A stretch of 64,000 bases of DNA from a virus (IMGVR_UViG_3300028584_000072:1-64000); one strand, 5' to 3'. Positions 5,040-48,329 are shown, counted from the stretch's first letter. The notes: generated from the sequence alone by a model not told the origin. Made by a program: numbers and translations.

Positions 5040-6035
5040 ATGTTAGATTGGCAGAGTAAGGCTTTAGAGTTACGTGGTACTATGGGTAGTCGTGCAATCG
5101 GGAAGTTATTAGGTAAAGGTAAGAGCTCGATTAATGATTACTTCAAGCGATATGATTTACAACAACTAGGCGCTACTCAGGGTGTTGGTAAAAGTATTTC
5201 TGAGGAAGCAGCCTTACCTTACTACAGTATTCAGACAACACTAAATGTACCTGAGAATATCACCCATCTGATGATACCAGACACACAATGTAAACCAAAC
5301 ATCGACATGAGCTATTTAGATTGGTTAGGGTTATACCTCGTAGATAAGAAACCAGAGGTAATTGTACATATAGGTGATCATGCTGATATGGAATCATTAT
5401 CAAGTTATGATAAAGGTCAACGTACAGCGGAAGGTAAACGTGTAGTTAAAGATATTGATGCTGCTATCGAAGGTATGAATCGACTACTTAAACCTTTATA
5501 TGAACTTCAGCAACAAGAATTGAAGCAATACGGTGAGGTGCTTTATAAACCTAAAATGTTGATTACATTAGGGAACCATGAAGCAAGGATTAGTAGGCAC
5601 GTAAATGCTAACCCAGAATTACATGGGTTTCTGAGCTATGACAGTCTAAAATACAAAGAAATGGGGTGGGAGGTCTATGACTTCTTGGAGCCTGTCGTGG
5701 TAAACGGGGTTGCTTATGTCCATTATATGGCTAACCCTATGACAGGTAAACCTTATGGTGGCACAGCACTAAATATCCTGAAGAATGTAGGTGAGAGTTT
5801 CTGTATGGGACACAAGCAGTGTTTAGATACCGCTACCCGTTTTCTTCCCTCATCGGGTAAACAACAATGGGCTATCATTGCTGGCGCTTACTACGAACAC
5901 GACGAAGATTACAAAGGCTACCAAGGAAATCATCATTGGCGGGGCATTGTAGTACAACACAATGTCAAGGCTGGTAGCTTCAACCCAATGTTTGTTAGCT
6001 TAGAGTATCTGAAGGAAAGGTATGGGAAGTTATGA
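5040..6035 (+). CDS. calcineurin-like metallophosphoesterase with N-terminal HTH-like segment
   Basis: Motifs IPDTQ, HIGDHADM and LGNHE occur in metallophosphatase order. Confidence 0.65.
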   Translation: MLDWQSKALELRGTMGSRAIGKLLGKGKSSINDYFKRYDLQQLGATQGVGKSISEEAALPYYSIQTTLNVPENITHLMIPDTQCKPNIDMSYLDWLGLYLVDKKPEVIVHIGDHADMESLSSYDKGQRTAEGKRVVKDIDAAIEGMNRLLKPLYELQQQELKQYGEVLYKPKMLITLGNHEARISRHVNANPELHGFLSYDSLKYKEMGWEVYDFLEPVVVNGVAYVHYMANPMTGKPYGGTALNILKNVGESFCMGHKQCLDTATRFLPSSGKQQWAIIAGAYYEHDEDYKGYQGNHHWRGIVVQHNVKAGSFNPMFVSLEYLKERYGKL

Positions 6036-31090: not shown

Positions 31091-31710
31091 TATTCACCTG
31101 CCTTAGACTTGAGGGCATTGTCAAGTGCATCCGTATCCCCTGTAGTGCCAAATATAAATGTATCTTTAACAATGGTTCTCTCTGTTGAAGATTTACCACC
31201 ATTACTTGTAGAGCTACTGGTATCTTTTTTACCATCGACAACTCTTGTAGCTGATAACAGATTAACAGTCTCAGTGGTTGCTTTGCGTATCTGCACTATA
31301 GATATATCGAAGTATAAACTGTTAGATGACTCTGGATTGGCGGGGATAGATAGACTCTCCACGACACAATCATAATACGTGTCATACTTACTAACTAACG
31401 TGAAGGTTAGTCGTTCATCACGAAGTTTACGGAGGAAAGAGTACGCTTGAGGAATACGATCTGCTGTACGAGTGAGGGTGTCAGCTTGGAAATCATTAAT
31501 ACCATATTGACCAAAGATACCAGATACAGTGAAACGGTTATTTTTTAGCTGTACATGATCGGAGAATGACACGCCAGTTTCAACAGGATGTTCTGTAACG
31601 CTGTTGGAGAAGTCATGAGAAATACTCACAGTGCAATCTGCAAAGTATTTCTCACCAGCAATCTCACTCACGCCAGCTTTGAATTTATTAGCGACGATGA
31701 ATGTAATCAT
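31090..31710 (-). CDS. tail module protein (206 aa), function unknown
   Basis: ORF track. ATGA/TAATG-type coupling to the tape-measure exon 2 stop. Confidence 0.5.
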   Translation of the reverse strand: MITFIVANKFKAGVSEIAGEKYFADCTVSISHDFSNSVTEHPVETGVSFSDHVQLKNNRFTVSGIFGQYGINDFQADTLTRTADRIPQAYSFLRKLRDERLTFTLVSKYDTYYDCVVESLSIPANPESSNSLYFDISIVQIRKATTETVNLLSATRVVDGKKDTSSSTSNGGKSSTERTIVKDTFIFGTTGDTDALDNALKSKAGE

Positions 31711-32649
31711 TATTGACTTGTCTCCATTTGGTTGACGGCGTTGGTCGAGAGGGTTCTGTTGTCAACTGCGGCTGAAATAACTTTACTGAATTCACCGTCC
31801 TTGACTGTAACCGTTACATTAACTGGCTCTGTTGAACTAAAAGGATTCACTGCTCTAACAGCACGTTGCCATTGGTTCCCGAAAGAGCTAAAACCCTCCC
31901 TGTTGAAACCTACTTTACCCCCTAGAGTATCCGCACCAGTACCTAACAGAGAATCCTTACCTTTTAAAAAACCGTAGGTATCTTCAATTGCTAAAGGTAT
32001 TAATGCGAACCTTGCCATGTTCCGCATTAAGGCAATGAGTGTTACGTTAGCGCCACCTATGACATTTTGCAGTAGCTTGAATTTAGTAGCCAATATTGCT
32101 AATGTCCCCCCAGCACCTATGACAGCCCACATCTTACCACCAAGACCGAATGTGTCGGCACCTAATGCCCCCCATAACGTAGAGATGACATCTGTCAATA
32201 TTTCAAGAGGCGTTAATGCCAGTTTAATAGCACCTGTAAGTATGGAAATGGCCCCTTTAAATATACCGCCTAAAGCTTTAGCTAAAGGTTTTAATGTTTC
32301 GATGGAATCTGTAAATTTCTCAAACATATAAGAAAGTCCAGAGTCCATTCCACCCTTGAACATTTCCACTTTACCTTCGTCAAGTACGTTGAAGAATCGA
32401 GTCATCTCTGCTCTTGTTTTACCAAGCACAGCGCCCAGTGCCCCACCTTCCCTCGACATCCTTTTCATTTCTTCAGCAAACTTAGGTAAAACACCCTTCG
32501 ATTTAACTGAACCAGATTCTACGGCTTTAAAGAATGCGGTAATATCATCACCGTACCCTGCTGCACGAGACATAGCATCTACGCTGCCCCCTAGTGCCTC
32601 ACCCAGCTGCCCCGTAAGCTCCTCTTTATAGATTTGCCCTTTAGATGCC
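31710..32649 (-). CDS. tape measure protein, exon 2
   Basis: It starts (G)GCA TCT AAA GGG = ..ASKGQIYKEELTGQLGEALGG. Joined to exon 1 it gives ALQQ-M-ASKGQIYKEEL. C-terminal Gly-rich TM-like segments are typical of TMPs. Confidence 0.7.
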
Positions 32650-33547
32650 CATTTGTTCAAACTGAGTCGTTAATTCAGTCCCGCTTTATTTAAGCTGCTA
32701 TATGTTTCCATATAAGTTCAGACTATATCTTCACCCTCCAGTTAAGGAGGGGTTCCACGTTTCGAGCCACTTGGCTCTACTCCCCTTGGGGATAGTCGTT
32801 GGGAAGAATATCAGGGTATAACACAGTAATGTGTTTCCAAGTGGCACGATACCGAATTTTAGAAACTTGCTTCTGAGTGAGTCCCATACGTTTAGCTATG
32901 GATGCACTCGATGGTGGCTTCTTGCCAACATGTTCTACGAAATATATTCTACAAACTTCGTGAACTTGTTCTTCGGTCATACTGCACATACCATGATTAG
33001 TTCCAAACAAGATAAGGACTAAACCATCTCGCCTAGCATCTTCTAGGTTAGATAAGTTGGTTCCGTATTCAAGATTGGTATAATGGTTGTTTGTTTTATC
33101 GTTATCTTTGTGTTTAACGACAACAGTTTCACCATTGTAATCTTCGGTAGTGTAATCTAAGTGTGCCGGAAGTTCTACAAAACAGTCAGCTACCGCTCTG
33201 TGGACTTTCCTTGTAAACCTCTTACCTTTTAAACAGTATTGGAAATAAACGTAACCATCTTTGTTTATCCTGCAATACCATCTTGTCATTGTTTTTGAAT
33301 TAAATAGCTTACCGCATTGAGATACCAGAATCTTTTGGTATTCAGGCCAAGGTTTTAATTCACCCTCATAATCGTTCTGCTGATTGCCCATTTCTCCCTC
33401 CTATACTAAAAGGAAAGATCATATCACCAACTTTTCAAACTGTCAAGCTTATCGTCACCGATTACTTTGTAGTGTGGGATCTTTAGGATGTTCCAGCATA
33501 TAATGGAATTTTTCACTACACATTACTGTATAGGCAGACAACATTCT
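32650..33547 (-). mobile_element. group I intron (898 nt) with internal HNH homing-endonuclease ORF
   Basis: P1 pairs exon GCAGAU with intron GUCUGC (U:G at the splice site). P10 pairs AUGUU with the 3' exon GGCAU. The terminal base is G. It has GAAGAUAUAGUC (32721-32732), a J8/7-P7-like core, and a GAAA-capped hairpin. The junction restores the frame (1995 nt). Confidence 0.7.
32777..33391 (-). CDS. intron-encoded HNH homing endonuclease (HNH_3 type)
   Basis: KDGYVYFQ...KVHRAVADCF...VKHKDNDKTNNHYTNLEYGT. It has its own RBS GGAGGGAG inside the intron. Confidence 0.75.
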   Translation of the reverse strand: MGNQQNDYEGELKPWPEYQKILVSQCGKLFNSKTMTRWYCRINKDGYVYFQYCLKGKRFTRKVHRAVADCFVELPAHLDYTTEDYNGETVVVKHKDNDKTNNHYTNLEYGTNLSNLEDARRDGLVLILFGTNHGMCSMTEEQVHEVCRIYFVEHVGKKPPSSASIAKRMGLTQKQVSKIRYRATWKHITVLYPDILPNDYPQGE

Positions 33548-34602
33548 ATCTGCTGCAACGCACGAAACGCACGTTGATAATCTTCTTTTGATGCGCCAAG
33601 AACTGTAGCATATTCACTTACACCAGTAAACAAACTACGTTGCTGGTCTTTAGTTAGTGATGTCTTAGTTGCTATACTAAACTTAGTAAATTCTTTAGTC
33701 GCTGAACGTAAGTCAACACCTAACCTCATTGCTTCATCACGAATGAAACTCATGTGTTCAGCCACACCCGCATCATCTTTAGCAAACACTCTAGCTGATG
33801 CAGATAAACCCTCAAATTCCATCGCAGTGGTGGAAATATTCTGCACAACACTAAACGCCGTATAAGCAGCAGTTAATTGTACAAGCTCATTACGTAATGA
33901 TCTAAATGATACAGCATTAGCTCTAGTTACTCTGTCAGAGTTAACCATTTCATTCTTTGTTTCATTTAGGCGTTGTCTAAATGTTTCAAGAGCGCGAGGT
34001 TGGGTAGGGTCAATAACTCTTAATGCTTCTTCCTTAGCAGCACCAAGGCGACTTTGCATTTCATTACGTTCCGCTTGACCTATACTTCTTTGAGTGAAGT
34101 ATTGTCTCAGTTGACTCTCTTTAATCTTGTAAAAGTTATCAACACCAGCTTCAAAGTCTGTTCTATTTCTCTTAGCTCTAGCAGTTTGTTTAGCTTGCTG
34201 TGCATCATGCTTATCTTTTTGTTTAATAAGATTAGCGGCTGCTCTGTCCTCATCCCTTAACATCTGAGCAAACATTGTTCTACTTGCTGGACTAGATAAA
34301 GCTGTTGCTGGAAATAAATGAGCAAGTCTACCGCTCATGTCAGCATTTTTATTTGAAGTTCTTACATTACCACTATACTTCTGTGTAGCTGCTGCTACTT
34401 TCTTTTCAGCATTTACTGTAGCATTAGCTACTTTATTTATTTGTTGAACGACAGCATTAACTTTAATGGACTTATCCATACCTGTCATCTGTCGTTTGAT
34501 TGAAGTAAGTTTAGACTGGAATAACGCTAAGTTGTCCCATGATTTCTTATCAATGTTAAATCGGACTTTCCCGACTACACTACCGACTACGTTTTCTGCC
34601 AC
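33548..34602 (-). CDS. tape measure protein, exon 1
   Basis: GTG start, long alpha-helical sequence, ending ..QRAFRALQQ(M). The in-frame run-on into the intron stops after 8 codons. Confidence 0.7.
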
Positions 34603-34630: not shown

Positions 34631-34903
34631 TTATTTTCTTTGCCTCTCAGCTTGTTTATTCATATCCACCTCTATCATGTTCATAGCATCTAAGTAATCA
34701 TTTATTTTAAGAAGGTATTCTAAGTCTTGTGATTCTAAAGACATGGCAGTTTCACCGCCTTCCTTTACTGCTCTCATAAACAACATATCTATGGGAGTCA
34801 ACATCGAATACTTCTCAATGTGAGCGATAACCCGCTTACTGGGTTTTATGCCAGTTGATGCAGTGGAATCATCATTGAAAACAACTGACTGAACCCCTTT
34901 CCC
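34631..34903 (-). CDS. tail assembly chaperone, -1 frameshift extension (GT-like product)
   Basis: The -1 frame is open from the slippery site to 34631. It has no start or RBS of its own. Confidence 0.6.
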   Translation of the reverse strand, partial: GKGVQSVVFNDDSTASTGIKPSKRVIAHIEKYSMLTPIDMLFMRAVKEGGETAMSLESQDLEYLLKINDYLDAMNMIEVDMNKQAERQRK

Positions 34904-35271
34904 TCGATTAAGCACCCATAGTGTTGTTTCAACACGAGAGATGTTAACTGAAGAAGTTCATCAATATTTTCTAAATCGGTTTCAATATTTAATGCTTTGT
35001 CTGAACTCTTAGACCATACGTCTTGTAGTATCAGTGAAAATAATTCTGTGATGTCTTGTTCTTCAAGTTGTTCAAATAACATGAACATAGCTTGAGGGAT
35101 AGCTGATTGGATATTTTCACCACCAGCGATAAGGAAAGAGATAGGTACGGCGAATGCTTTACCAATCTTAGGAAGGTTCTTAGCAGCTTTCATTGGCGAC
35201 CAAGAAGCAGAGATGTAGGCTTTACCACCTACATTGAAGATTTCTTTTTTACGTTCTAAATTTGTTGTCAT
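34846..35271 (-). CDS. tail assembly chaperone (G-like)
   Basis: Located between the tube and tape-measure genes. It contains GGGAAAG near its 3' end. Confidence 0.65.
   Translation of the reverse strand: MTTNLERKKEIFNVGGKAYISASWSPMKAAKNLPKIGKAFAVPISFLIAGGENIQSAIPQAMFMLFEQLEEQDITELFSLILQDVWSKSSDKALNIETDLENIDELLQLTSLVLKQHYGCLIEGKGFSQLFSMMIPLHQLA
34897..34903 (-). other. -1 programmed ribosomal frameshift slippery heptamer G_GGA_AAG
   Basis: The heptamer is in the zero frame of 34846..35271. It is the same sequence used by the lambda G/GT pair. Confidence 0.65.
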
Positions 35272-43505: not shown

Positions 43506-44566
43506 TTACATATCAGCTAAAGCTATAGCTTTAACACTTATAGGAGGCGCAGAGAATGCGCCGAGTTTTGGGACTGTGTATATCTTAGCTGTGTTAAGGT
43601 AGTTGAATGCCGTGCCAACCGCATCGACGAAATCATCGTGTCTAGTACGTGTTGATTTGGTAACACCATCGAAGTTTTCACATTCTCTGTAGAAGTAATC
43701 TAGTGTCTTTCTATCCCAACCAGACTCAACTATAAATACCAAACCATTCTGTACTGCTGTAAAGAAAGGTTCTGATTTCTTAATCTTACTGGCTGTAGAA
43801 CTAGAAGTATCTTTCTTAGGGATTAAACCTTCGGACATGATATACTTTGAGAGGTATTCAAATGCTGCTGCACCCCCCGCACCGTTATCTTTAGGGATTA
43901 CAATGTGAACGTCACTACCATCACGTTTACCTTGAGCGACTATTGTAGCATCTCTGTCACCAGTACGCTTACGGTAATATTCACCATTAAGTAAGTAGTA
44001 ATACCCGTCTTTAGATTTGGCAACCAGAACACTTGCGGTGGCGTCACAGCCTACCGTAGCCGGAGTATCGTCAGCAGTTGATGCTAAGTCATACCCGCGA
44101 GCTAACATGCAGCCCATAGGCATCTGGGATGCTTTCTTTAGGTCTTCTCGTTTGAAGAAAATTCCAGTATCATCGGTAGAAGCCCAACAGCCCATGAGAA
44201 GCTGTTTACGTTTACCTTCTGGCATACTGTCTAGTTTCTTGCGATACGAACTATCGAGCGTATCTAGAGCCTCGTTGTCGTCCAATGTTGCAGGTATATA
44301 AGTGTAAGTCTCAGGGTCTTTACCCCAAGTATCTCTTAACTCTTGTTCATCCCAAGACGTGTACAAGACACCTTCAACGACAACGAAGTATCTAGTTTTA
44401 CCAGATAACTCTTTACGAGGAAAATCTTCATCATCTAAGTAGGGTTTAACCCATTCATAAATAAAACTGTTTGGTGAAGGGTTAAGAGTGCATCGAATTG
44501 ATTTGGGAATACCAGACATTGAACGGTTACGAGAACGTATTACGTCAAATTGGTATTGACTTCTAA
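43506..44566 (-). CDS. terL: terminase large subunit, exon 3 (nuclease domain)
   Basis: It begins (F)RSQYQFDVIRSRNRS...IRCTLNPSPNSFIYEWV. The C-terminal RNaseH-like nuclease region has GYDLAST and HDDFVDA. Confidence 0.75.
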
Positions 44567-44854
44567 CATTGTATTTACTACCACTCGCTACTGTGATAGC
44601 CATATGGCTTTAACTTTCGCTAAAGATTAGGTCATATCTTCACTTCTAAGAAGTGCCTTCCGTTTCGCTGCGCTTGCAGCTACGAGCATTGCTCTGACCG
44701 TCGAACGTTCTCCTATTCGGAGCTTCGCTGCTGATTGCCTAATACACTTAATTTTCAAACATTCACGCTCAGGTTTATTTCATCCTCACGTTGTAGTTTA
44801 AGTGTCTTAAAGGGTTTCCAGCAATTAAAAAGGTTTACCCTCAGCATAGAGTCT
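44567..44854 (-). mobile_element. ORF-less group I intron 2 in terL (288 nt)
   Basis: P1 pairs exon CUCAGU with intron GCUGAG (U:G). P10 pairs UCUA with exon-3 UAGA. The terminal base is G (44567). It has a P8-like hairpin plus GAAGAUAUGACC (44630-44641). Its core is homologous to intron 1. Confidence 0.65.
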
Positions 44855-45170
44855 ACTGAGCTTCTTCAAAAAACGCACAGTTAATTTCTGTACCGTACCA
44901 AGCATCTGCATCTTTATCTGTGCTAAGATATGAAAACGTAGTCCTTGCACCAGATGGAAATGTGATTGTTTTTTGTTGTTCGTTTACCTTAGCTTGACCT
45001 AAGAATCTACCTGTAGTATCTACGAGGTAAGGCATGTACATACGTTTTGCATCAACCCAAAGACCTTTATCAATCTCTGTAGATGTGGTACGATAGAACA
45101 CGCTAAAGTAAAGAGGATCATGAATACCTAGGAGATTTACGCAGAGCGCACCATAGGTCTTACCACCACC
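44855..45170 (-). CDS. terL: terminase large subunit, exon 2 (Walker A lysine to Walker B)
   Basis: GGGKTYGALCVNLL...ITFPSGARTTFSYL...INCAFFEEAQ. An in-frame TAG immediately precedes GGT at 45170. Confidence 0.75.
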
Positions 45171-45411
45171 CTATTAATTTTACAGTCGCTACACTGTTTC
45201 CACCATTTCTGGCGTAATTGGATCATATCTTCCATCATAAGATGGCTTCCTGTTTGGAGTAACCAATAGCTTGTTACCCTACGTCCGTACACTCATCGGG
45301 ACTGATCTCTACACGTTCTCTATCAAGAGCTTCGCTCGGTATTGCCTTCAACTAAATGGTAAGGTTTCACCGAATTAAGGAAGTTGATTAAGGTGGAACC
45401 AGTTATGGTTT
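45171..45411 (-). mobile_element. ORF-less group I intron 1 in terL (241 nt)
   Basis: P1 pairs exon GGUGGAGCU with intron GGUUCCACC (9 bp, U:G at the splice site). The terminal base is G (45171). It has a P8-like hairpin plus GGAAGAUAUGAUC (45221-45233). Confidence 0.65.
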
Positions 45412-45534
45412 AGCTCCACCGCCAAAGAACACAATACTTTCTTTGGCATTAGCAAACTCTAGCTGCTTAGGTTGTAATTTGATTTCAGGTATATTTCGGA
45501 TAGGGGTCTTTCTGATATTATGTTGTTTTGTCAT
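45412..45534 (-). CDS. terL: terminase large subunit, exon 1
   Basis: The RBS GAAGGA and the ATG 45534 both lie inside the 3' end of the HNH ORF. Sequence is MTKQHNIRKTPIRNIPEIKLQPKQLEFANAKESIVFFGGGA. Joined to exon 2 it gives the Walker A sequence FFGGGAGGGKT. Confidence 0.7.
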
Positions 45535-46231
45535 ATATTTCCTTCATAAACTTATCGAATACATCTCTCCGTCTGCTACCATTAACTATCCTACTAATTT
45601 GTGCAGCAGATAACTTATATTCTTCACATAAAGTTTTCTGAGGTATATTATTACAATGAGCTTTGATTAAAAGCTCTAAGATTAAATCATCATCGTGTTT
45701 GGCTGTTGTACGCTGTTCAAATTTATCTGATTTTACGATTCCAGTAATTTCAGAAAATCTACGTCCAGTTACAATCTCACTAATTGCATCAGCCCTGCAC
45801 TCTAAGTTATATTTTTCTTTAAGATCTTTATGTGAAGCACCATTTTTGTAGTCTGATACAACAGACAACATTTCTTCTTTAGTTAAAGAAGATAGTGTTC
45901 TTTTCCCAATACCATTAACGTAATAATGTACAGTATTGTGAGTGTAAGTACACCACTCTAAATTAGAGTAATGGTTATTACTTACGTTCAAATCTTTATG
46001 ATTTATAATTGGTAGATTATTTTGGTTATCTAGAAATGCTGAAGCGACTAAACGATGTACTCGTAGGTCGTGTCTAACTTTATTCTCAGTAAGATTTACA
46101 GCCAGATACCCATCTTTATCTAATTTAGGTTTCAGCATTTTTCCAGATTTGTAATAGCTATAAATATCTCCATATTCAGAGATTTTATACATAGGGAAAT
46201 CTGGGATAACTCGCCACTCAATATTGTTCAT
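45518..46231 (-). CDS. free-standing HNH homing endonuclease (I-HmuI-like: NUMOD4 + HNH_3 + HTH repeats)
   Basis: WRVIPDFPMYKISEYGDIYS, DGYLAVNL...RVHRLVASAF...INHKDLNVSNNHYSNLEWCT. The 3' end overlaps the terL start by 17 nt. Confidence 0.8.
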   Translation of the reverse strand: MNNIEWRVIPDFPMYKISEYGDIYSYYKSGKMLKPKLDKDGYLAVNLTENKVRHDLRVHRLVASAFLDNQNNLPIINHKDLNVSNNHYSNLEWCTYTHNTVHYYVNGIGKRTLSSLTKEEMLSVVSDYKNGASHKDLKEKYNLECRADAISEIVTGRRFSEITGIVKSDKFEQRTTAKHDDDLILELLIKAHCNNIPQKTLCEEYKLSAAQISRIVNGSRRRDVFDKFMKEIYDKTT

Positions 46232-48251: not shown

Positions 48252-48329
48252 TGGTAGCCCCTGAAGGATTTGAACCTATCTACCTTTCCCTTATGAGGGG
48301 ACTGCTCATACCAAATGAGCTTAGAGGCT
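48252..48329 (-). tRNA. tRNA-Met-like (anticodon CAU; could be Ile2/fMet), CCA encoded
   Basis: Acceptor AGCCUCU/AGGGGCU, D arm GCUC..GAGC, anticodon loop CUCAUAA, T arm GA(U)AGG-UUCAAAU-CCUUC with one bulged U, then ACCA. Confidence 0.6.

Follow-up and report, generated by a model that had tools for sequence, protein, structure and literature searches.

The 64,000-nucleotide viral DNA stretch IMGVR_UViG_3300028584_000072:1-64000 (hereafter the window) encodes a tape measure protein (TMP) whose gene is interrupted by an 898-nucleotide (nt) insert at 32650..33547. We consider this insert very probably to be a mobile, phage-type (subgroup IA) group I intron, which splits codon 352 of the TMP gene of an E217/Pakpunavirus-like myovirus and carries a gene for an I-HmuI-like HNH endonuclease. 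Four independent lines of evidence support this interpretation: a junction across which the TMP_3 domain reads without a break, a covarying catalytic core, an intron in a relative that scores 70.2 bits against the Rfam model RF00028, and an open reading frame (ORF) resembling I-HmuI. The anatomy of the insert, its conservation and covariation, the exact restoration of the reading frame, the existence of an empty site and the mosaicism of the flanking exons are demonstrated by these data. Coordinates are those of the window, and the features described at the TMP locus all lie on its minus strand.

The ORF list for the locus contains three entries, at 33523..34602 (359 amino acids, aa), 32777..33391 (204 aa) and 31710..32660 (316 aa). 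A preliminary description of this DNA had taken the outer two to be parts of a single TMP, rejoined at an AU|G codon, and several observations bear this out. The upstream ORF ends eight codons into the insert (C-terminus ...RAFRALQQIECCLPIQ, also given as ...RALQQIECCLPIQ), and the downstream ORF has no ATG, its sole in-frame start being a TTG that lies within the intron helix P9.2 and is not preceded by a Shine-Dalgarno (SD) sequence. Joining 33548 to 32649 produces a 1995-nt ORF encoding 664 aa, in which exon 1 (33548..34602) supplies codons 1-351 and the AU of codon 352, and exon 2 (31710..32649) supplies the remaining G and all that follows to the stop codon. The exon 1 ORF alone scores 38.7 bits against Pfam TMP_3, below the cut-off of 41, and covers profile positions 2-99 only, while the ORF at 31710..32660 by itself has no Pfam match. 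The spliced protein matches TMP_3 (PF20155) at 62.1 bits in one stretch, with aa 255-418 aligned to profile positions 2-163. Since TMP_3 is continuous only across the junction, the break sits in the middle of the domain, which is whole once the 898 nt are removed.

A homologue search of 5.8 billion proteins identified TMPs that are naturally uninterrupted, including P0001 (663 aa, 73% identity, 100% coverage) as well as P0002, P0004-P0006 and P0009 (41-52% identity, with P0009 at 41%, and full coverage). In the protein alignment, these homologues read ...FRAVQQMASKGQVYKEELTGQLGEA... through the predicted junction ...FRALQQ-M-ASKGQIYKEELTGQLGEA..., and P0001 and P0006 read ...QQMASKGQVYKEELTGQLGEA... 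across it. The junction QQ-M-ASKGQIYKEELTGQLGEA thus equals the uninterrupted homologues residue for residue. At the DNA level, an intron-less allele (L019) reads CAGCAGAT|GGCATC and is the same as the fused exons of the window at 14 of 14 nt, so that the comparison with relatives lacking the insert, proposed in the preliminary description, agrees for both protein and DNA. The splice boundary is unambiguous because shifting it alters the G count and breaks the frame.

We asked whether the insert is recognizable as a group I intron by covariance-model search, which aligned one half of the structure correctly at a score below threshold. When the whole window was scanned with Rfam at gathering settings (cut-off of 50 bits for RF00028), the intron was not reported. 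A permissive scan of a 1.4-kb region gave an RF00028 match of 38.4 bits (E = 6.5e-8), in which P8, J8/7, the 3' strand of P7 and P9 were placed at high posterior probability. Only this 3' core was matched by the model because a 615-nt ORF fills P6 and extends into core helices on either side. The model's 5' half was wrongly placed, and we therefore rebuilt this half by hand from homologues. A 253-nt intron that lacks an ORF (L003 5086..5338) occupies the same site as the window's intron and is the relative that scores above threshold at 70.2 bits; its P1 is identical to that of the window and its P2 nearly so.

Homologous introns were gathered from contigs with truncated TMP ORFs and from matches to a 21-nt pattern spanning the 5' splice site. 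Five truncated ORFs from the protein search share the read-through terminus QQIECCLP(I/T)Q. The collection contains seven distinct ORF-carrying introns of 886-907 nt, and the ORF starts at intron nt 157 in all of them. Covariation was assessed in an ORF-trimmed alignment of eight homologous introns, with P7 added as a pseudoknot and 68 pairs counted. RNAalifold recovered P1, P2, P3, P4, P5, P5b, P5c, P7.1, P7.2, P8 and P9 de novo. Pairing was found in 96.3% of the pairing cells, compared to 32-44% when 3' partners were slid by 1-3 columns. Compensatory changes occur in 19 of the 68 pairs and are distributed over P2, P3, P5, P5b, P7.1, P7.2, P8 and P9; shuffled alignments yielded 7.3 +/- 1.9 such pairs (0/500 reached 19) and the slid controls 0-4. 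P1, P4 and P7 are invariant and thus uninformative either way, and a helix termed P5a2 was left out of the counts because no single register fits the window and its relatives.

Helices that the alignment does not cover were evaluated in individual sequences. The P6 duplex, in which ORF codons ~7-10 pair with the last codons, was tested per sequence, outside the alignment, and occurs at the same place in all seven ORF-carrying homologues (dG of -8 to -14 kcal/mol), with the register shifted by one in L006 and L015. P9 folds independently in every intron, and P9.1/P9.2 fold in five of seven despite differing sequences (they could not be resolved in L012 and L014). A mini-intron made by deleting the ORF from the window's copy has a minimum free energy z-score of -3.9.

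The assembled structure comprises a complete core, with P1-P10, the P3/P7 pseudoknot, P7.1/P7.2, J8/7 and omega-G, and includes each of the elements that the preliminary description had picked out by eye. The intron starts with AGAAUGUU, the P1 loop, which is followed by the internal guide GUCUGC. Loop and guide together span 33534..33547, and P1 is invariant in 8/8 homologues. The guide (33534..33539) begins at intron nt 9 and pairs with GCAGAU (33548..33553), the last six bases of exon 1 and thus the 5' strand of P1, leaving the predicted U:G wobble at the 5' splice site (U33548 paired to G33539). A P10 pairing of AUGUU in the P1 loop with GGCAU of exon 2 is possible, as had been suggested, and is retained as UGUU/AGCA in L005 and L007, whose exon 2 begins AGCAA. 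The terminal intron base is G32650 (omega-G), and the introns of all relatives likewise end in G.

Downstream of P1, the P2 hairpin CUAUACA/UGUGUAG (33516..33533) shows two compensatory pairs. The 5' strand of P3 (33503..33508) and the P4-P5 domain together occupy 33378..33508, as defined by RNAalifold and pair counts. Within this domain, P4 pairs UGCUGG (33493..33498) with UCAGCA (33378..33383), and the 5' strand of P5, UCC (33486..33488), faces AUGGGC (33386..33391), which contains both the start codon of the intron's ORF and the 3' strand of P5. A P5a-c extension with a GNRA hairpin lies in between (33414..33484). P6 is formed by GAUUAUGAGGG (33363..33373) and CCCUGAUAUUC (32806..32816). 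The bulk of the ORF is looped out of P6, its first codons forming the 3' strands of P5 and P4 and the 5' strand of P6, and its last codons contributing to the 3' strand of P6, J6-7, P7 and P7.1.

The catalytic core (32721..32797), taken from the Rfam alignment, shows 100% pairing and compensatory changes in P3, P7.1, P7.2 and P8. It consists of the 5' strand of P7, GACUA (32793..32797), P7.1 (32781..32792) and P7.2 (32765..32776), both with compensatory changes, the 3' strand of P3, GUGGAA (32753..32758), the P8 hairpin CCCUCC-UUAACU-GGAGGG (32734..32751), J8/7 UGAAGAUA (32726..32733) and the 3' strand of P7, UAGUC (32721..32725). J8/7 together with the P7 3' strand, UGAAGAUAUAGUC (32721..32733), equals the Rfam consensus at every letter. 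We take the extra helices P7.1 and P7.2, situated between P7 and the 3' strand of P3, to be the mark of subgroup IA, the usual phage type. The remaining helices are P9 (32698..32715), which carries the GAAA loop noted in the preliminary description, P9.1 (32683..32695) and P9.2 (32660..32680), and the intron's 3' tail, UGAACAAAUG (within 32650..32715), finishes in omega-G.

Two drawings of the core were revised. P5 was at first drawn as CUCCU paired with the AGGAG of the SD sequence; this version was rejected, as UCC paired with the GGR of AUG-GGR shows U-A/U-G/C-G covariation and leaves J4/5 and J5/4 at canonical lengths. The CUCCU-SD pairing is possible as an alternative conformation with a regulatory role. 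P7 was shortened from six pairs (GACUAU/AUAGUC) to five, the sixth base covarying as part of P7.1.

The ORF within the intron (32777..33391, 204 aa) encodes a predicted I-HmuI-like homing endonuclease of the HNH_3 type, as had been proposed. This assignment draws on Pfam (HNH_3, 25.5 bits), PDB (residues 22-179 align with I-HmuI, 1u3e, E = 4.9e-6) and PHROG (PHROG 59, E = 9.4e-32). The catalytic HKD...NN...NL...N motif is kept, with HKD at residue 94 and the NN and NL asparagines after it. The nearest homologues in cultured phages are encoded by Pseudomonas Pakpunavirus phages (SPA01, PseuPha1 and ZCPS13; GenBank OP875100 and others) and are 38% identical.

The expression signals of this ORF are embedded in the ribozyme. 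An SD sequence, GGAGGGAG (33394..33401), falls in the 3' part of the P5 extension. The ORF's AUG is followed by G's that supply the 3' strand of P5, and P4 takes its own 3' strand from codons 3-5. Because the SD sequence and start codon lie within the P4-P5 helices, ribozyme folding and translation initiation would seemingly be exclusive on any one molecule. A sigma-70-type promoter-like site with an extended -10 element (TTGACA-17-TGaTATGAT, 33418..33446; 11/12 consensus matches) is located within the P5 extension and precedes the SD sequence by 27 nt. It is unique in the 64-kb window and was found in 0/100 shuffles. Wherever a relative's intron has the 122-nt module described below, the site is preserved before the HNH ORF. 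This site is presumably the endonuclease gene's own promoter.

The distribution of the intron among relatives points to mobility. Ten close TMP homologues are full length, and about nineteen end at 53-56% of the query, which corresponds to the interrupted motif. An empty site with an identical junction exists (L019), and close relatives vary in whether they have this intron. The uninterrupted P0001 (L002) was also considered as an empty homing site and was rejected, as its DNA (...GTTCAAATGTTCTCA...) cannot form this P1 and represents another allele type. The flanking exons are mosaic with respect to P0001. Identity is 87-100% over aa 61-150 and 77-97% (mostly >=83%) over aa 451-664, and 43-57% over aa 271-450, a segment centred on the intron at aa 352 in which P0004/P0005 are closest. 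This pattern fits what would be expected if flanking exons were co-converted in the course of homing, or if recombination had the element as its boundary.

The region surrounding the insertion is a hot spot. Rfam and tblastn searches of the relatives placed group I introns at at least five positions inside ...QQ|M ASKGQL|Y(A)|KEEL|TGQL|..., a stretch of ~16 codons. Site A, at AU|G of the Met/Ile codon, is occupied in the window, L003#1, L005#1, L006, L007, L012#1, L014#1 and L015; site B, after GQL, in L008#1 and L003#2; site C, after LYA, in L009#1 and L010; site D, after EELTG(Q/R)L, in L005#2, L008#2, L011 and L003#3; and site E, after YKEE(L/F), in L012#2 and L014#2. L003 has three RF00028 matches in a single gene (70.2, 52.3 and 30.9 bits), and the window is occupied at site A only.

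Tandem arrangements of two or three introns were observed in several of these relatives (L003 5076-6616, L005 5149-6419, L008 5090-5726, L009, L012 and L014). The tandem introns are separated by micro-exons of ~10-45 nt, one of which (L005 6056-6100) encodes ASKGQLYKEELTGRL.

One segment is shared across sites. Intron nt 50-171 (33377..33498) form a 122-nt segment that contains P4, P5, P5a-c, the promoter-like site, the SD sequence, the start codon and the 3' strand of P4. Introns at other sites (L003#3, 5716-5835; L009, 5651-5770; L010, 5224-5344) have this segment at 87% identity, and Pseudomonas phage SPA01 (L017 2395-2515) has it at 76%. The P1-P3 regions differ between introns having this segment, a combination that suggests modular exchange between introns. 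A more speculative proposal, which we advance only tentatively and hold to be doubtful at present, is that the TMP_3 motif (...RAxxAxQQ-M-ASKGQ-L-Y-K-EEL-TGQ-L...) acts as a cross-family landing pad for introns, and the 122-nt segment as a portable unit that crosses sites and families (this clade and Pseudomonas Pakpunavirus). If this were true, half of a ribozyme and an endonuclease expression cassette would travel jointly and would reach new sites by way of a swapped P1-P3 guide region.

From these features we infer catalytic splicing, the activity and specificity of the endonuclease, and use of the promoter-like site. In the late transcript, the intron would fold into the P1-P10 architecture, and an external guanosine bound in P7 would attack after U33548, at the U:G wobble of P1. 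The freed end of exon 1 would then attack after omega-G 32650, with P10 aligning exon 2, and ligation of the exons would generate an mRNA for one 664-aa TMP. With the promoter-like site, SD sequence and start codon all inside P4-P5, ribozyme folding may compete with endonuclease translation. During mixed infection, the endonuclease would target TMP alleles that lack the intron, cutting or nicking them at the conserved site ...CAGCAGAU|GGCAUC..., and repair would copy the intron plus flanking exon sequence into the cut allele.

Several points weigh against this interpretation. For this phage, splicing and the TMP product are deduced from sequence alone. The intron scores 38.4 bits against a gathering threshold of 50, with the 5' half of the Rfam alignment misplaced within the ORF, and the HNH_3 match is marginal relative to its cut-off of 24.8 bits. 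P5 comprises 3 bp, its 5' strand may instead pair with the SD region, and RNAalifold additionally placed a separate hairpin over that region. The P6 duplex beats shuffles modestly (z of -1.1 to -2.3). The shuffle statistics overstate the significance of the compensatory changes because the eight introns are related, though the slid-partner control is free of this effect.

A group I intron is not the only way to account for a divided TMP gene. The HNH gene could have been inserted without any splicing, leaving a gene in pieces whose two half-size TMP polypeptides assemble non-covalently, a situation for which the split nrdA of Aeromonas phage Aeh1 is reportedly a precedent. Gene callers do divide the TMP into two ORFs, both here and in every interrupted relative, and the SPA01 record annotates three separate 'hypothetical proteins'. 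We nevertheless regard a gene in pieces as very unlikely, given that a complete ribozyme core upheld by compensatory changes surrounds the ORF, that exon 2 lacks an ATG or SD sequence of its own and exon 1 meets its stop 8 codons into the insert, that the interruption falls in the middle of the TMP_3 domain, and that the homologous case in Vibrio phage ICP1 is spliced.

The insert might alternatively be a former group I intron in decay, spliced inefficiently in a defective or declining phage or dependent on a helper or maturase. The Rfam score under the gathering threshold, the short P5 and a P5a2 helix weaker in the window than in its relatives are in keeping with decay; every core helix is nonetheless intact in the window's copy, J8/7 and P7 equal the consensus, seven independent relatives keep the 886-907-nt architecture, and the HNH ORF is open with its catalytic motif kept. 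The TMP is essential for tail assembly, which also counts against decay, and we judge this explanation to be just as improbable as a gene in pieces. Nothing beyond the interruption of a conserved motif favours another type of intervening element, be it an intein, a group II intron or programmed translational bypass, and the chance that one of these is responsible seems negligible. An intein is excluded by stop codons in the exon frame directly past the junction, Rfam returned no group II family match whereas RF00028 was matched, and the 898-nt gap far exceeds known bypassing. An intact, mobile group I intron thus remains by far the preferred explanation.

The genomic context of the interrupted gene is that of a myovirus tail module. 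Minus-strand gene order is sheath (PF11863), KPP10_Orf10, TAC_15, TMP, Dit_like, Pam3_gp18 and E217_GP41 (baseplate hub), which places the TMP between the tail assembly chaperone and the distal-tail and baseplate genes. A 94-aa ORF that immediately precedes the TMP gene runs, in another frame, over the 3' end of TAC_15 (34631..34915 and 34846..35271, minus strand). The spot just upstream of the TMP is the usual place of a frameshifted chaperone extension; the 94-aa ORF has no Pfam match. Neither the TMP region nor a 24-kb stretch had a megablast match among GenBank phages, indicating that the phage itself is absent from the collection searched.

Elsewhere in the window, the large terminase gene is likewise interrupted (43506..46231, minus strand). 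An ORF-less intron at 44608..44893 exceeds the RF00028 threshold with 67.5 bits, and RF00028 matches again at 45199..45452 (37 bits), next to a NUMOD4/HNH_3 ORF (45518..46231). Terminase_6N/6C matches fall in the ORF at 43506..44603, and a small middle exon is at 44853..45101; the 5' terL exon was not located. RF00005 detects a tRNA gene (44.7 bits) upstream of the terminase region, at 48255..48329 on the minus strand.

For annotation, the reading favoured here would mean that this phage and many relatives, SPA01 included, encode one full-length TMP and not two 'hypothetical' halves plus a stray HNH gene. The correction would touch on tail-length prediction (664 aa) and on proteomic and structural work. 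The insertion hot spot is dense, with up to three introns per gene and at least five sites in ~48 bp across relatives, and the exon mosaic fits the idea that homing endonucleases mark the boundaries of phage genetic exchange.

Comparison with known systems reveals several parallels. The td, nrdB and nrdD introns of phage T4 (IA2) are likewise of the IA type, with P7.1/P7.2, an ORF looped from a peripheral helix and internal expression signals; they differ in carrying GIY-YIG (I-TevI, I-TevII) or HNH (I-TevIII) enzymes and in residing in non-structural genes of nucleotide metabolism. In the Bacillus phage SPO1/SP82 intron (I-HmuI/I-HmuII), a phage group I intron is likewise combined with an HNH endonuclease, though the host gene encodes DNA polymerase. 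I-HmuI is described as nicking one strand (PMC421625).

Introns in TMP genes are not as rarely reported as the preliminary description had supposed. Prophages of the Bacillus cereus group have group I introns (IVS1-3) at three TMP positions (Tourasse and Kolsto 2008, PMC2504315) and, compared by description only, resemble the present clade in having multiple intron positions in one TMP gene; unlike the window, they are Gram-positive siphovirus-type prophages with TMPs of >1200 aa. Papers on Moonbeam, KASIA, Cluster J mycobacteriophages, Basilisk-like phages and Pakpunavirus P7-1, and an ONT-cappable-seq study, reported no TMP introns. Among cultured phages, the Pakpunavirus SPA01 (L017, OP875100.2 31030-34270) has a 375-aa ORF ending ...FRAVEQMMGKGQIMS*, an HNH ORF and a 417-aa ORF starting ...KEELKGQLAE, all three annotated as hypothetical proteins, with an RF00028 match of 42.2 bits across the TMP gap. 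Its insertion lies further downstream than that of the window (after ...GKGQI) and in a different host family, and we found no mention of this split TMP in the literature.

The closest described parallel is provided by ICP1, whose TMP has three introns with HNH-3 genes that were shown to splice by RNA-seq and reverse transcription PCR, and whose authors termed the TMP a 'frequently interrupted gene' (Barth et al. 2023, PMC10448857). The host gene and the TMP_3 motif are the same, with the first TMP ORF of ICP1 M4 ending ...RAFTALTQIMSKNQVMA* and the window reading ...RAFRALQQ|MASKGQIYK. RF00028 matches the ICP1 M4 gap at 84.5 and 32.6 bits, and the endonucleases are of the HNH_3 class, one ICP1 HNH ORF being 34% identical to that of the window. 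The two differ in that ICP1 has three introns and four exons compared to a single intron in the window, the insertion site is a few codons off, ICP1 is a Mohonavirus whereas the window belongs to an E217/Pakpunavirus-like metagenomic clade, and DNA similarity is confined to short core stretches. The window extends a documented pattern and leaves current understanding unchanged, adding a new phage lineage to the ICP1 observation that the TMP gene is a favoured home of intron-borne HNH endonucleases.

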